A stretch of 64,000 nt of DNA, from assembly GCF_048403405.1 (NCBI RefSeq), contig NZ_CP183129.1; one strand, given 5' to 3'. This DNA is from Escherichia coli. Its GTDB lineage: Bacteria; Pseudomonadota; Gammaproteobacteria; Enterobacterales; Enterobacteriaceae. The translations under genes and the position numbers were made by a program. Below, piece by piece: positions 17,447-55,667 of this stretch (positions within the stretch are counted from its first letter, which is position 1; every line of letters starts with the position of its first letter). The notes below the pieces were generated by a model. It made no database searches. It was not told where the DNA came from and was given only the letters and a program-made list of their open reading frames with translations.

Positions 17447-20400
17447 TCAGCTGATACTGATGCCTGCGGTGGCTTTCTTCATCACCACAACCAGCAAATC
17501 GCTGATACTTGCTGTGGGATACCAGTTATTCACCAGCCATGCTGACACCGAAAACTCCAGCGTCATGTGGCCGCGACCAGCTGGCATATCAATAACACCA
17601 CTGTAAATCAGCGTATTATCCAGCGCGGTACGGTTATAAATTTCAGCACCGTTTTTCCGTACTATCAGGCGGCATGACGAATAAGTATCGCTGTTCTCCC
17701 GCTCATGTCTGGCACCGCTGAAAGCCACCGCCGGAATAACAATCTGCCGGTTAAACGGCTGATCGTCATAAACCCTGACGGTAATGGTTCCTGATGGCCA
17801 ACGCTCCGGTGCACGGGAGTCACGGGGGAAAGCCTTACCCACTGTTTTAACGAGATCGCCTTCAATCTGGTTTGCAGACAGTTTCCCTCTGATGACACAG
17901 TTCTCGTTAATGGTGACATTATTGAGCGTGCCGGTATTCGCCGTGATGGCTCCACTGATATCCGCATTGCGGGCTGTCAGCCTGCCATCCGGCGTCAGGG
18001 AAAACGTAGGAGGATTGCCGGATGACGTGATGCTCACCGCAAACAGTCGCTTCAGGAACACGTCGTTCATGAACAGCTGATTCCCCTGCGCCACAAACAG
18101 CGGCGTGGTGTTGCCATTCTCCGGGGTAATCATCGCGATACGGTCCGCCTGCAGCAGAATACTGCTCAGCGTCTGACCATCAACATCCTCAATCCCCGCA
18201 CCAATCCCGGCCACATAGGGAATACCGTTTTTTGTTTTCTGCACCTTCAGCATATACATGGCATTCAGCTCATTGCGCGTGTCTGACTGAACCCGCTGGA
18301 TTTGCTGTATGGTCACGGCCTGGTCACCCAGCTTTTTATCCGTGGTCGAGGTAATTTCACTCCCTTTTTTATCCACGTACTGGCGGACCTGTGCTATCTG
18401 TCGGGCGTTTTCTGACTGCCCCTGGCTGACAGTCTGTGAGATTTCACTGCTCACCCGGTCCACTTTCTGGCTCACCTGCGCGATGGCCAGTGTCTGGTCC
18501 TCATTCTTTTTCGCAACCAGCTGCGTGAGGCTGTTTTCCGCCTTCCCGATTTTCCGGGTCACTTCTGCGATATCCGTGTCCATCCGCTGACGGATGTCTT
18601 CTTCCAGTTGCGTGACCTCCGTACGCAGCGCTGAAGCATCAATGCGCTCTTTCAGTGCCTGGCCCAGAAGCGTCTCATCTATCAGCCCCCGGAAAATTTC
18701 CAGATACCCTTCACCATCATTGCTGGGCTGCCCGCTGGCTTCCACAAAAGCAGATTTTCCCACCAGGTTGACGCTTCGCACGTAAAACCAGAAATCCGTC
18801 CCCGGCTTAATCCGGCTCCCCTGGACAGTCCACTGACTGCCGGTCCCCAGATAACGGGCAGATTTTTCCACCTGTGCCGTGTTCGTGATGCGTTTTTCTG
18901 AGAACCAGAATTCAAACTGTACCGTCGGGTCATACACCGCAAGACGCGGGACCGCCGTTATCTGAAAATACCCCGGCGTCAGCTCAATGGTGGCGGGTTT
19001 TGCAGGCGCGTTAATCCGGAAGGTGGTGGTCGCAGGTTCGCCCTGCTGGCCGTAGCTGTTAATGGCCCGCACCGTCAGGGTGTATTCCCCCAGTGGCAGG
19101 CCGCTGAAACGGTGCTCCGTGTCTGCGGTGATGGCGGTGGTCACCAGTCTGGCATCCGTTCCCTTACCACTGGTCAGGCGCAGACTGAAGCGCACACCCT
19201 TCACCACCCGCGGCGTGTCCCATTTCGCCTGCGCCAGATACTGGCCGTCAGCTGCGCTCACCTCCACCGTCAGGTGCTGCACTGCCGGTGGGATGACGCT
19301 GTTCAGGGAACCTGACTGCGGCTCAAAGCGGGCACCGTTATCCACGATGGCTTCTTTTTCCGGTACGTGCTGCACCGCCGTGATGGCAAAGGTGCCGTCC
19401 GTGTTTTCCCGGACGGAGACACAGCGGAACAGGCGACGGCGCAGTGACGGCAGGGAGAGTCCCCACACCCCGTATGTCTCCACACCATCAGGCAGGGTAC
19501 TGACCTGTATCCGGTCCGGCGCGGGGTGTTCGGTGATGTCCACACTCACTGGCTTACCGCTGCCGTTAATCAGGTTCACCGTGGCGGCACCGGTCTCCGG
19601 AAGTGTCACTTCACGGTCCAGCGTCAGGGTGCGGGTGGCAGCATCAATGGACAGGACACGTCCGCCGGTCAGGGTCCCGGCATAGTCGTTATCACAGATT
19701 TCAATGATGTCACCGGGTGTGTGCCGCAGCCCCTGAGACCCGAGCGTGAAATCCACCGTCTGCGTTTCCAGCAGTTCGGTCTTTATCACCCACAGTCCGG
19801 CACGGTGGGCCTGACCGCGGCTGGTACAGCCGAACGCGTCCATCTTCAGCAGGTTGCGTCCGTAGCGCAGTATGGCTTCCGGGTCTTCCACCAGTTCCGT
19901 GGAGGTCTGCCAGCCGTTCTGCGGGTCGGTGTAATTCACCTCCACCGCCGTGTGCCGGTCCTTCAGGGCACTGAAGCTGTAGCGGAATCCCACGCCGTTA
20001 TCATCCACCACCACATCGCTGTTGGTGTACGGCCACACCACATCCGACGGGCGGTCCTGAACGAACGTCAGCGTCTGACCGTTCCATACCGGCATACAGC
20101 GCATCGCAGAGCAGAAATCACTGAGAACGTCCCACGCCTTACGCTGTTGTGCCAGGTACGCATTAAAGGTCATCCGCGGCTCGGTCCCCCCGAAACCATC
20201 CGGGACCGTCTGGTCGCAGTACTGCCCGATGGCATACAGCGCCCACTTGTCCACATCCGCCGCCCCCAGACGTTTTCCCATGCCGTAGCGCGGGTGAGTC
20301 AGCATGTCCCACAGGCACCAGGCCGGGTTGTTGCTGTATGCCGGTTTCAGACTGCCGTCCCAGATACCACTGTACGTGCGTTTTTCCGGGTCATAGTTTG

Positions 20401-21139
20401 ACGGCACCTGGATGATACGACCGCGGATATGGTAGTTCACCGTCATCTGCTGGCCGCCGAACTGCTCCGCATCCACCTGCAGCCCCACAATGGCCGTGTT
20501 CGGGTAGCACTGTTTCACATCGATGATTTCGGTGTATGACGACCACAGCGTCTTATTCTGCAGCTGGTCCGTGGTGCTGTCCGCCGTCTCCCTGACCATC
20601 CGGATGTTAAAGGGCCGGGGAGGCAGATTATCCAGAATCACCGAGGCCAGGAACTGTGAGGTGGTCTTGCCGTTAATGGTGACGTCCTTTTCTGTCACCC
20701 AGTTACCGTTACGCTGTAACTGAATCAGCAGGCGGACGGTTGCCGGGTTACGGTCACCCTTTGAGGTGGTCTCCACCAGTGACTGCACCCCGAAGGTAAC
20801 CCGCAGGCGGTCAATGTTCGCGGACGTAATGGTGCGCGTCACCGGTTTTGCCTTCGTCACTTCCACGCCCAGTCCGGTTTCAGCTCCGGAGGACTCAAAG
20901 CCTTCCGGTGGTGTCTGCTCCTGCTCCCCGGCACGCCAGACCGCGGTCACACCGTGTATCACGGGATTACCGTCCGTGTCCGTCAGCGGGGTTTTGTTCA
21001 CCAGAATACTCTGCAGTCCCTTCACCGGACCTTCTATCGGTCCCTCACCAATCGCATCAATCACACTCATCATCTGCGTGGATTTGAGATTATCCTTCGC
21101 CTCACGAGGCGTGTGTGCCTTACCGCCACCTTTTCCCAT
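17447..21139 (-). CDS. J: tail tip host-specificity protein J
   Basis: 1230-aa ORF collinear with lambda J ([22 protein letters not shown]...; fibronectin-type regions; conserved C-terminal receptor-binding part). Confidence 0.95.
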
Positions 21140-21378
21140 ACAGCCTTCCCCTGAATAAATTAACCGCCACTTGCCATTCCGTACAGAAGTCGGATATCCT
21201 TCGCCCGAAAAGCATGAAACACATTTCTGCCATGCTAAAGAGAAACCCCGGTATCAGCAGATACCGGGGTTTTCTTTCATGCCCACCGATAATCCTGTTG
21301 GTTAAAACCGGTAATGGCATAAAAATTCTGAATATCTTCACATTTTCACACACTGACTGTGGCGCGTATAATTTCTCT

Positions 21379-21476
21379 GCGTTAATTTTTTTGTCGTGAT
21401 ATAAGAATAATTCCTTACACTTAATCTTCGTAACTCTCCCGCAGTTCCTGTCCGCGATCACTGCGGGATTTTTTTA
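21379..21476 (+). ncRNA. candidate small RNA in I-J spacer (sigma70-like promoter plus intrinsic terminator, antisense to tail operon)
   Basis: -35 TTCACA (21345-21350), 16-bp spacer, -10 TATAAT (21367-21372); hairpin CCCGCAGT...ACTGCGGG followed by TTTTTTT at 21438-21478. Confidence 0.3.
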
Positions 21477-21482
21477 TTCTTT

Positions 21483-22163
21483 TTACCCCTGCCGCCCGAT
21501 AACCACGACCTTTCCGCCCCCGCCTTCATCACGGGTGCTGATGTCCTGGGATATACGGCGGGAGCCAACCAGCATTTCCCCGTAAGGCACCGGCATCGGG
21601 TTCCCCTGGGCAATCATGTTATCCAGCGAGGAAAAGTACGTGTTCTGTCTGCCGTTATCCGTTGCGCGGTAATCCGGTGTTTTTGCCTTCGGGGCCAGCA
21701 TCTGGGCCACTCCGCCCAGTATCATGCTGGCACCCAGTGAAAACAGCATCGTGGTGGCAGAAAAACCACCGGCACTCAGGGCTGTACCCCATAACGCCAT
21801 CGAGCCTCCGGCCGTGAAGAAAGAGCCCACGATGGCTGCCGCCCCCAGCACAATCTGCAGTCCACCCTTTCCGGCCCCGGCCAGTCGCGGCACAATGTGG
21901 ATGACCGTTCCCTCACCCAGCTGTTCGTGAAGACGGGCGTACACCGCCTCCGGTGCCGTGTCATCACCGGCAATACGTATCTGGTACCAGCCTTCGTTCA
22001 TCTGACGGCGAAAGCCCGGCATCTGCATCGACAGGGCGCGAATGGCTTCCGCTGCCGTGTTCACATACAGGCTGAGGCGGCGGCCAAATCGTTGTAAATC
22101 CCCGTGAAGGCAGATGCGTGCCAGTGGCGGTGACGCCAGACAGAATGCGTTCGTCGTTGCCAT
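21483..22163 (-). CDS. I: tail assembly protein I
   Basis: 226-aa ORF collinear with lambda gpI (ARICLxGDLQRFGRR ... YGEMxVGSR). Confidence 0.9.
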   Translation of the reverse strand: MATTNAFCLASPPLARICLHGDLQRFGRRLSLYVNTAAEAIRALSMQMPGFRRQMNEGWYQIRIAGDDTAPEAVYARLHEQLGEGTVIHIVPRLAGAGKGGLQIVLGAAAIVGSFFTAGGSMALWGTALSAGGFSATTMLFSLGASMILGGVAQMLAPKAKTPDYRATDNGRQNTYFSSLDNMIAQGNPMPVPYGEMLVGSRRISQDISTRDEGGGGKVVVIGRQG

Positions 22164-42270: not shown

Positions 42271-42313
42271 ATCTGACAAAATCAATATAAACAGCCCCTC
42301 CGGAGAGGGGCTG
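42271..42313 (-). terminator. intrinsic terminator (minus strand) upstream of lysis cassette
   Basis: Hairpin CAGCCCCTC-CGGA-GAGGGGCTG followed on minus strand by TTTATATTGATTTT. Confidence 0.5.
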
Positions 42314-42610
42314 GAGAGTGGCGCTATGTGCCATTGCATGGTGCCGGGTGCCTCCCGGTGAATTCAGTACCAGCACCTGAATCCGCGATTATCCCATATA
42401 CCTACTCGCTGATTGCCCCTCCGCACAGGGGGATTCACCATGCCAGTTTCTTTTAACAAACTCCCCGCAAACCAGACAACAGTCAACCGCCTGAATTGTG
42501 AAGTATTTAAAAATTTCTCCCGCTAACTGATACCCGGCTAACAGTCTGGCGTTTTCTTTTTCAGCAACGGGAAAGCAACAACCACCACACCCACCAGCCG
42601 CCCATTTACC

Positions 42611-45960: not shown

Positions 45961-46116
45961 TTACTCCTCAGGTTCGTAAGCTGTGAAGACAGCGACCTCC
46001 GTCTGGCCGGTTCGGATTCGTACCTCGCAGAGGTCTTTCCTCGTTACCAGTGCCGTCACTATGACGGTTAAACAGATGACGATCAGGGCGATTAACATCG
46101 CCTTTTGCTGCTTCAT
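45961..46116 (-). CDS. hok: Hok/Gef-family type I toxin (51 aa)
   Basis: Translation MKQQKAMLIALIVICLTVIVTALVTRKDLCEVRIRTGQTEVAVFTAYEPEE is a canonical Hok-family peptide; not in the ORF track (below size cut-off). Confidence 0.85.
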   Translation of the reverse strand: MKQQKAMLIALIVICLTVIVTALVTRKDLCEVRIRTGQTEVAVFTAYEPEE

Positions 46117-46129
46117 AGCCTGCTTCTCC

Positions 46130-46230
46130 TTGACCTTTCGGTCCGTAAGAGGCTAATCTCTATGTGTCGCATAGATATGGCCTCAGATTAATGTTAAGCG
46201 TCTTGCAGGACGCGTAATGTTAACTGGGGC
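46130..46230 (+). ncRNA. sok: expected Sok-type antisense RNA / mok leader region of hok locus (location approximate)
   Basis: By analogy with hok/sok loci the antisense RNA overlaps the hok mRNA leader; exact ends not determined. Confidence 0.3.
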
Positions 46231-46374
46231 TTTTCTCTATCTGCCTTTTGGTGTTCATGCCTGAGACAGATAGCCTCAAGCACCCGCAGTTATTCTACTT
46301 AACTAAGATTTCCCCGCAAACCGTTTTTGTCCGGCACAGTAAATATCCAACTAAACCAATGGCGTTCGCTGTAT

Positions 46375-54282: not shown

Positions 54283-54584
54283 TTTATTCACAGGTGAGGT
54301 AGAGTGCGTGCGCCGGACACGGATAAGAATCCGGCACTGACAGTTTACTAAAAAGGATATATCCCTGAAAAGTCAGGGCATAACACGAAAGCGCCCGGCG
54401 AAGTTAGTCTCTCTGTATAGGTCGTCGTTAAATTTAATTCGATCGTGCGCTTCCGGTTGTGGCAATCCGCGAAATGGCGCGGCGGTAAGTATGGCTGGGG
54501 TTTCCTCCATTGCTCCAGAAAATGCACCGGGTTGTCAGGTTGACCATACGCTTAAGTGACAGCCCCGCCACAATACCCATGTGT

Positions 54585-54637
54585 AGTCTTTGGTGGCATC
54601 AGTTCTACTCCGTGACTGCTCTGCCACCCTTTTTAAA
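54585..54637 (+). ncRNA. dicF: DicF-like small RNA (3' stem-loop/terminator region conserved)
   Basis: TTTGGTGGCATCAGTTCTACTCCGTGACTGCTCTGCCACCCTTTTT closely matches recalled DicF 3' portion, with compensatory stem changes GGCGG/CCGCC to GGTGG/CCACC. Confidence 0.55.
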
Positions 54638-54812: not shown

Positions 54813-55667
54813 ATGTTGAATGTAGCTATTGAAAACCAGAACGGGTGGAATTATAGTGCACCTGCACCTCATAAAACGGGTGCCGGGCGTGGAAACCCGG
54901 AATTCAATCAAGCGCATAACCGCGCTCAGGCGGTTTTTTTATGCGTCAAGCACAGCCACATTCAGATTATGGTGGGGCGTGCAGGGCAGCTGCAAGGCTG
55001 GCCGGATTCTTGGTTGACCGGTATTTCCACCCCTGTACGCCTCACCACCCTTATGGTCGTGGAAAACCTTGGTGGTGAGTTATTAATACTCAACCAAGAG
55101 GCTGCCATTATGGCTACTATCCCTACCCTTTCTCACCCTGACGTAACCATCGAAAATGGTCGCGCTGTCACTACGTCTGTTGCGGTTGCAGAGTTCTTCC
55201 GCAAAATGCACAAGGACGTTCTGCGCAAAATTGAAACGCTAGAATGCTCTGAAGATTTTAACGAGCGCAATTTTACGCCCGTTACCTACACCGACGCCAA
55301 AGGCGAAAAACGCCCCATGTACCAAATCACCAAAAACGGCTTCGTTTTCCTGGTGATGGGGTTCACAGGTAAAAAAGCCGCAACTTTCAAAGAAGCCTAC
55401 ATCGCTGAGTTCGATCGCATGGAGGAAGAACTGCGCCAGAATAACGCCCCGTCTCCCGACAAAATGATTCACGGGGACGGACGCACCCTGGTTATCCGTC
55501 TCGACGAACACGGCAATATCAAATTCACTGAAACCGTTCCTGACGGCGCAATGGTCTGCACCCTGGATACCTTCCGGTTTTATCTGGAGAAACAAGGATG
55601 GACTCTTGTAAACCGGAGCGCAATTAAAAATATGACTGTGGAGCAATTGCTAAAAATTCATTGTTGA
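54813..55667 (+). CDS. Rha-family phage regulatory protein (possible antirepressor); start uncertain
   Basis: C-terminal 185 aa carry Rha-like motifs (AVAEFF.K.H..VLR.I ... MGFTGKKA..FKEAYI.EFDRMEEEL); alternative start at 55110. Confidence 0.65.
   Translation: MLNVAIENQNGWNYSAPAPHKTGAGRGNPEFNQAHNRAQAVFLCVKHSHIQIMVGRAGQLQGWPDSWLTGISTPVRLTTLMVVENLGGELLILNQEAAIMATIPTLSHPDVTIENGRAVTTSVAVAEFFRKMHKDVLRKIETLECSEDFNERNFTPVTYTDAKGEKRPMYQITKNGFVFLVMGFTGKKAATFKEAYIAEFDRMEEELRQNNAPSPDKMIHGDGRTLVIRLDEHGNIKFTETVPDGAMVCTLDTFRFYLEKQGWTLVNRSAIKNMTVEQLLKIHC

Follow-up and report, generated by a model that had tools for sequence, protein, structure and literature searches.

The spacer between tail genes I and J in the window, by which we mean the whole 64,000-nucleotide stretch of Escherichia coli DNA analyzed here (on contig NZ_CP183129.1), very probably carries, in its half called module B, an autonomous small RNA (sRNA) gene of the PasB family, an 'RNA moron' with a distinct seed allele. 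The original prediction, an antisense sRNA of roughly 100 nt that has a promoter and a terminator to itself, is supported: a 97-nt RNA is predicted, its homolog PasB is a published sRNA encoded in the same spacer and in the same orientation, and the element belongs to an sRNA family that is already known and has experimental support. What is new is a common, unannotated allele with a different seed, which has apparently been overlooked, and the apparent place of PasB within a wider family of cassettes that vary in their seed. The anatomy of the unit, its homology, its distribution and its lost complementarity to sampled EPEC targets are all observed on the window allele itself.

The unit lies within a lambda-like tail operon carried on the minus strand of the window, in which the names I and J are backed by near-identical annotated genes of ASU11, E2348/69 and VT1-Sakai. 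As J starts at 21139 and I stops at 21483, both on the minus strand, the bounds of the spacer are 21140 and 21482:

17447-21139, minus strand: J (tail tip, host specificity), an ORF of 1230 aa whose homologous CDS is annotated J in ASU11, E2348/69 and VT1-Sakai
21140-21482, no strand: I-J intergenic spacer of 343 bp, from the ORF list, divided into module A (21140-21320) and module B, the sRNA unit (21321-21482)
21483-22163, minus strand: I (tail assembly), an ORF of 226 aa, annotated I in homologs

An insert of about 340 bp with no comparable counterpart in lambda had been proposed here; the ORF coordinates give 343 bp, and the lambda spacer measures only 60 bp. Stx1a and Stx2c phages and E2348/69 have only module B in common with the window, their module A being different. 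Elsewhere in the window, matches at the Rfam gathering threshold are to IS009, STnc100, sok antitoxin RNA, DicF, isrK and C4 antisense RNA; they sit at 13061-13259, 42283-42472 and 46114-46285 on the minus strand, and at 54578-54629, 54864-54940 and 54965-55052 on the plus strand, a set that is typically the usual RNA complement of lambdoid prophages. IS009 is a frequent neighbor of PasB (Zhu, Shabalina and Storz 2026 preprint, 10.64898/2026.05.13.724894).

Module B reads as a complete transcription unit, directed against the tail operon:

21326-21345, plus strand: upstream box TTCTGAATATCTTCACATTT, 20 nt, at -53 to -34 from the predicted start, with CRP-like half-sites TCTGA-N6-TCACA
21345-21372, plus strand: sigma-70 promoter TTCACA-16 bp-TATAAT, 11/12 match, with its -10 at 21367-21372, antisense to the tail operon
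21379-21475, plus strand: primary transcript predicted for the window allele of the PasB-family sRNA, 97 nt, from G21379 to T21475
21386-21392, plus strand: 5' U-run (U7), nt 8-14 of the RNA; this T-run is nearly invariant in 21 alleles
21403-21411, plus strand: A-rich (A-R-N)x3 tract AAG AAU AAU, nt 25-33, a candidate contact for the distal face of Hfq
21412-21434, plus strand: seed-equivalent single-stranded region UCCUUACACUUAAUCUUCGUAAC, corresponding to PasB nt 37-59 and unpaired in the consensus fold
21438-21475, plus strand: intrinsic terminator, with an 8-bp GC-rich stem CCCGCAGT/ACTGCGGG, a 14-nt loop, A and U7

The near-consensus promoter that had been proposed at 21345-21372 is the only sigma-70 match of at least 11/12 on either strand of the 64-kb window. 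Consensus scans are by themselves no evidence of function, and the promoter and terminator motifs might be chance matches, or mere transcriptional insulators that yield no discrete RNA. This is very improbable: first-order Markov simulations give 0.57 chance promoter matches of this quality per 128 kb scanned, or roughly 0.003 per 343-bp spacer, over 1600 genomes conserve the motifs, and the homologous unit yields a Northern band of the expected size. The terminator, which had been expected about 65 nt downstream of the promoter with a run of seven T, is found at that distance: CCCGCAGT (21438-21445) pairs with ACTGCGGG (21460-21467), an A and seven T (21469-21475) follow, and the predicted RNA ends 8 nt short of the I stop codon. 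Our terminator scan flags an inner alternative helix together with the T-run, and the minimum free energy (MFE) fold takes the 8-bp outer helix. As predicted start we took the G seven nt past the -10 hexamer, a 5' end that is predicted and not mapped; the published 5' end of the 83-nt PasB corresponds to about 21392 in the window, 15 nt downstream of the start predicted here.

On sequence, this RNA has the features of an Hfq-dependent sRNA, that is, a terminator with at least six U, an unstructured seed region, and U-rich and ARN motifs. Columns A26, A29, A31 and A32 are invariant or near-invariant in the 21-allele alignment, and E2348/69 has AAC AAA AAC AAC at the position of the ARN tract. 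A comparison with Rfam had been suggested along with the original prediction; in Rfam 15, no family matches the spacer at gathering or permissive thresholds. The best sub-threshold match, to STnc310 (19.4 bits against a threshold of 40), covers the module-A hairpin only, and weak matches to STnc310, CopA and similar families were set aside as merely reflecting that hairpin. The published PasB locus is likewise without an Rfam match, which indicates that the database holds no model for PasB.

Over the 60 nt upstream of the predicted start, 57 are identical to the promoter region of E2348/69 PasB, where the promoter is flagged as well. Across all 12 divergent spacers that we aligned, the pattern TTCTGAA-NN-TCTTCACATTT stays invariant, whereas the -35 hexamer and the promoter spacer do not. 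The box is found once in the window with up to three mismatches allowed (0.02 expected), and its conservation makes it a likely candidate for a regulator-binding site. That the regulator might be CRP is a guess, which we keep at low confidence because the position is non-canonical (the box is centered at -44.5 from the predicted start, and a class II CRP site, TGTGA-N6-TCACA, near -41.5) and because CRP-like cores are not rare in the window (the core in the box matches at 9/10, and five such cores are present against 2.2 expected). The level of PasB is higher in the non-activating condition (PMC8550237), which is compatible with CRP but unspecific. On the tail strand, the promoter scan found no promoter of at least 9/12 within the spacer; a partner RNA, divergent or antisense, that would end at the module-A hairpin is therefore disfavored.

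PasB (E2348CN_0006) of EPEC O127:H6 strain E2348/69 is an 83-nt RNA of prophage PP6, encoded on the minus strand of NC_011601.1 at 1466343-1466261 (Table S6 of Pearl Mizrahi et al. 2021, PMC8550237). On Northern blots it appears as a band of about 83 nt, its level is Hfq-dependent (log2FC of -6.8 and -2.4 in an hfq deletion mutant), and it is found as RNA2 in RIL-seq chimeras, with 37 interactions (PMC8550237). Its RIL-seq partners comprise ler, perB, bfpB, bfpI, espC, ftsZ, fabR, the tolC 5'UTR, the ydbJ 5'UTR, yrdD-smg, galE, glk and others (Table S3, PMC8550237); RIL-seq reports proximity on Hfq, not regulation, and none of the PasB targets has been functionally validated in any strain.

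In E2348/69, PasB falls between the end of I (1466255) and the start of J (1466496), hence inside the I-J spacer, in the same antisense orientation as the window unit; there too, the terminator directly adjoins the stop codon of I. The two units share an identical upstream box and the same layout of U-run, ARN tract, unpaired seed and terminator, and the last 25 nt of the RNAs, the terminator 3' arm and the U7 tail included, are identical. They differ in the RNA body, where 77 of 104 aligned columns are identical (74%), in the terminator loop (an unusually large 14 nt in the window, 11 in E2348/69) and in module A. Of the 23 bases in the reverse complement of the PasB Northern probe, 20 match the window. 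The register of the alignment is confirmed by the C/A polymorphism at 'position 27' that distinguishes PasB from PasB-2 (Zhu et al.), as it maps exactly onto CTCCTT[C/A]ACATT. The window unit thus has the locus, the orientation and the promoter and terminator homology of the PasB family, and not the same seed; judged by its letters, it is a divergent, unannotated PasB allele with a different seed and not the same functional variant.

Two ORFs overlap the spacer:

21120-21461, minus strand: ORF of 113 aa, from the ORF list
21115-21399, plus strand: ORF of 94 aa, from the ORF list

Both had been thought unlikely to be proteins, and this view holds. Related phages were searched for a conserved protein-coding gene in the spacer and none is conserved: no ORF is common to the spacer types, and the indels between alleles are not multiples of three and break the frames. 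Nor do the spacer ORFs have a significant PHROG match, and they run through the terminator hairpins. Three phage records annotate a 'hypothetical protein' over the sRNA unit or module A: ASU11 gp9c (L001 2981-3181), 1720a-02 AGR48338.1 (L092 746-898) and PhiR12_5 XSB42053.1 (L095 718-816). These annotations, and the mere existence of the ORFs, could be taken to mean that the spacer encodes a small protein, be it the 113-aa, the 94-aa or a shorter one. However, where the annotated ORFs lie, how long they are and which frame they use changes from record to record, and, being mutually inconsistent, they are probably gene-caller artifacts. Considering in addition the non-conservation and the PHROG result, on which the coding reading of both ORFs was rejected, we find a small protein exceedingly improbable.

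Module A contains secondary structures of its own:

21243-21272, no strand: 13-bp hairpin, core CCCCGGTATC/GATACCGGGG, loop AGCA, in module A and outside the sRNA, terminator-like in both directions
21285-21330, minus strand: predicted second long imperfect stem-loop in the tail-sense RNA of module A, beside the strong hairpin

The strong hairpin corresponds to the second hairpin of the original prediction, said to be flanked by T/A-rich tracts on both strands; it is indeed A-rich upstream and T-rich downstream on each strand, has a 13-bp stem, is placed at 21243-21272 and reaches folding z-scores of -7.0 (plus) and -6.6 (minus). It went unflagged in the terminator scan, since its stem takes up the A/T bases on either side. 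The MFE fold of 21240-21345 on the minus strand has an energy of -43.9 kcal/mol (z = -6.6).

Of the 1450 records (1445 genomes) that match module A, 1441 do so at 99% identity or more, and, judging by the record counts, the module always adjoins a PasB-type unit. The other spacer types have a different hairpin at this place, CAGGCAYC-loop-GRTGCCTG followed by TTGTTTTTG on the tail strand, with one compensatory C-G to T-A change. This alternative hairpin lies between the PasB promoter and J in the spacers of E2348/69 (L002 1931-1954, plus strand), VT1-Sakai and Stx2 phages (L090-L095), and the scan flags it as a terminator in the direction of the tail operon, within the late operon. We infer that the module-A hairpin may act as a terminator or insulator flanking the moron; the second hairpin is part of a separate, exchangeable module and not of the sRNA gene. 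Two viral contigs (L048 and L057) are devoid of exactly 47 nt (window 21229-21275), the whole 21243-21272 hairpin included, with TTTCT at both edges, which points to slipped-strand deletion or else to insertion of a hairpin element.

Conservation in related prophages had been proposed as a check, and the unit recurs in lambdoid and Stx phages, in E2348/69 and in E. albertii. By BLAST, the spacer is present in 1668 of 5426 complete E. coli genomes, as well as in Stx-converting and other lambdoid phages, and it is never annotated. The window-type allele accounts for 799 of the 5426 genomes (about 15%), many extraintestinal isolates included, and the published-type allele for 956; the window type is also carried by Stx2c and Stx1a phages. 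Among 100,044 species representatives, true units are restricted to Escherichia, matches of the box pattern in other genera being mostly due to chance, and E. albertii NBRC 107761 carries the identical window allele. Perfect PasB-type units of E. coli phages were also encountered in two assemblies labeled as non-enterobacterial, L208 (MAG 'Collinsella sp.', 8.7 kb) and L214 ('Parendozoicomonas haliclonae', a 460-bp contig), most likely through mis-binning or contamination of public records.

PasB-like units are present in 106 phage records. The 2026 survey, in which Escherichia genomes were searched at word size 28, reported PasB in only 24 phage genomes (Zhu et al. 2026, 10.64898/2026.05.13.724894). 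As the longest exact word shared by the 83-nt PasB and the window allele is 25 nt, the window allele and other divergent alleles were probably missed by that survey and have probably stayed uncatalogued. A full-text literature search for the sRNA sequence itself gave no match. The units of Stx-converting phages have the spacer, the box, the -10 position and the terminator in common with the window unit; copies in Stx2c and some Stx1a phages are 94% identical to it, and the VT1-Sakai and Stx2a alleles, about 70% identical, have weak -35 hexamers and represent further seed variants. None of the PasB-like units of Stx-converting phages (Stx2c, Stx1a of O157, VT1-Sakai, Stx2a, 1720a-02) is annotated, and we found no study of them.

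The difference between the window allele and PasB is most consequential in the seed, which has been proposed from conservation to be the conserved single-stranded region upstream of the terminator (Zhu et al. 2026, 10.64898/2026.05.13.724894). In an ungapped comparison, 9 of the 23 positions of the seed-equivalent region differ from E2348/69, and the UCCUU and AUCUUC motifs within it are conserved across alleles. Pairing was examined on six of the approximately 37 RIL-seq partner fragments, chosen for their short length and not at random, by summing the longest perfect Watson-Crick blocks; whole-length RNAduplex predictions against the fragments were over-extended and uninformative, and perfect-block counts were used instead:

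E2348/69 PasB: longest blocks of 11 (fabR), 10 (tolC, over the start codon), 9 (ler), 9 (ydbJ), 7 (yrdD-smg) and 6 (ftsZ); sum 52, shuffles 41.2 +/- 2.8, reached by 0/200 shuffles
Window allele: longest blocks of 8, 8, 7, 6, 6 and 6; sum 41, shuffles 41.0 +/- 2.4, reached by 54% of shuffles

All E2348/69 blocks of at least 7 nt fall within nt 37-59, UCCUUCACAUUGAUCUUCAUUUG. The window allele has lost the perfect complementarity that PasB shows to the fabR, tolC, ler, ydbJ and yrdD-smg fragments. Since its seed differs while its promoter, box and terminator match those of PasB, the window allele would most likely regulate a different set of mRNAs from the EPEC allele.

The comparison with ASU11 shows where this divergence is located. 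Identity drops to 62-74% only within 21390-21486; in 50-nt bins, it is 96-100% over the 700 bp to the left (the start of J, module A and the promoter) and 86-100% to the right. The confinement of the divergence to the approximately 100-nt RNA body points to a cassette-like replacement of that body. One could suppose instead that the allele is expressed but drifting neutrally, its divergent body having no selected targets and reflecting relaxed constraint rather than retargeting. The absence of excess complementarity to the sampled PasB partners, the lack of window-allele targets in a search within the 64 kb and the number of alleles (49 unique ones in our sample) would all fit this possibility. 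It is nevertheless quite unlikely, as the allele hardly varies over 633 records (99% identity or more) and E. albertii has an identical copy, the alleles all hold on to the unpaired state, the short motifs and the ARN tract, and the divergence has sharp boundaries, typical of recombinational exchange and not of gradual decay.

The extent of this variation was assessed by scanning IMG/VR with the invariant upstream box TTCTGAANNTCTTCACATTT, which, together with the loci already collected, yielded 49 unique RNA alleles. In that sample, PasB-2 was found at 37 loci, the window allele at 30, making it the second most common, and PasB at 20. The alleles of VT1-Sakai, of Stx2a phage and of 1720a-02 are about 70-80% identical. 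In the consensus fold of 21 alleles, the terminator is the sole conserved helix and the 5' 60 nt are unpaired. Conserved across these 21 alleles are a 5' GCGUUA, the U-run, an A-rich tract with a 3-nt periodicity (ARN), UCCUU, AUCUUC and the terminator with its U-tail. In distant members, the terminator helix shows compensatory changes from G-C to A-U, a covariation that is thin, most alleles being invariant in the stem.

Some of the collected loci depart further from the common organization. Tandem PasB-like boxes or units are present in longer I-J spacers (L110 8163-8883, 721 bp; L156 9809-10239, 431 bp), in each of which one unit has a different terminator stem (CUCCCGU/ACGGGAG in L110 and a related one in L156). 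A distant relative (L097, about 1150-1400), whose I protein is 64% identical to that of the window, keeps the box and the layout, and its terminator CCCACAG/CUGUGGG represents a compensatory double change with respect to CCCGCAG/CUGCGGG.

We consider it an evenly balanced proposition that PasB is one allele of a larger, unrecognized family of I-J sRNA cassettes, with at least 49 alleles that are sometimes in tandem, in which the operator-like box and the terminator are kept and the targeting body of about 60 nt is swapped by recombination, the window allele guiding Hfq to different host mRNAs.

By analogy with PasB, from which expression, Hfq binding and action in trans are extrapolated, the unit would operate as follows. 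In the lysogen, host sigma-70 polymerase would start at the near-consensus promoter (-10 at 21367-21372), antisense to a silent tail operon, and transcription would stop at the intrinsic terminator, 8 nt short of the stop codon of I. The resulting RNA would be about 97 nt long; trimming, to which the 83-nt size of PasB points, would bring it to about 84 nt. Such an RNA, with its 5' U-run, its (ARN)3 tract, about 25 single-stranded nt and a terminator hairpin followed by U7, would have the layout of an Hfq-dependent base-pairing sRNA, and it may act with Hfq by base pairing through the unpaired 21412-21434.

A different role would be that of a cis-antisense regulator of the phage late operon, which would pair with the I-J part of the tail transcript, to which it is perfectly complementary, leading to RNase III processing or destabilization, or act by convergent interference, and so tune J during induction. 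The gene is always in the I-J spacer and always antisense to the tail operon, a terminator-like hairpin in the tail direction always lies just beyond it, and the window seed has no complementarity of at least 10 nt in the 64 kb except to the opposite strand of its own locus. Yet the duplex would form 8 nt past the I stop and over 240 nt ahead of the ribosome-binding site of J, where it occludes no start site; in the lysogen, where the late operon is silent, Hfq-dependent chimeras of the PasB homolog with unlinked mRNAs of host and plasmid are abundant; and a cis-antisense role alone leaves the conserved UCCUU and AUCUUC motifs and the cassette-like replacement of the seed unexplained. We regard this role as unlikely, although the two are not mutually exclusive and an RNA acting in trans could also act in cis.

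Phage 'morons', as Juhala et al. reportedly described them in 2000 (cited in PMC4104026), are autonomous promoter-gene-terminator units located between genes that are adjacent in related phages, and expressed from the prophage. Like them, the window unit has its own promoter and terminator, between I and J, which are 60 bp apart in lambda; unlike them, its cargo is a non-coding RNA, oriented against the operon in which it lies. It resembles AgvB, AsxR, the EcOnc sRNAs, Esr41, PasA, PasC, PasD and DicF in its location on a lambdoid prophage, its intrinsic terminator and, by way of the PasB homolog, a presumed dependence on Hfq. Those RNAs act on core-genome and virulence transcripts, and the window sRNA has no sequence relationship with them. 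AgvB and AsxR are anti-sRNAs encoded at the PR' moron site, whereas the window unit lies in the tail module and the partners of its homolog are mostly mRNAs; identity with either was rejected on account of their different sequences and prophage site. The EcOnc sRNAs were likewise set aside as probably differing in sequence and site.

For genome annotation, these results mean that word-size-28 surveys under-count the PasB family, for which Rfam has no model, and that gene callers put spurious 'hypothetical proteins' in the I-J spacer. For the biology of E. coli, they bring to light a regulatory RNA gene of its prophages that is very common and never annotated. The partners of the EPEC allele include the ler, per and bfp transcripts, ftsZ and tolC. 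If the seed alleles have different sets of targets, lysogeny by near-identical phages would rewire the post-transcriptional regulation of the host strain by strain.
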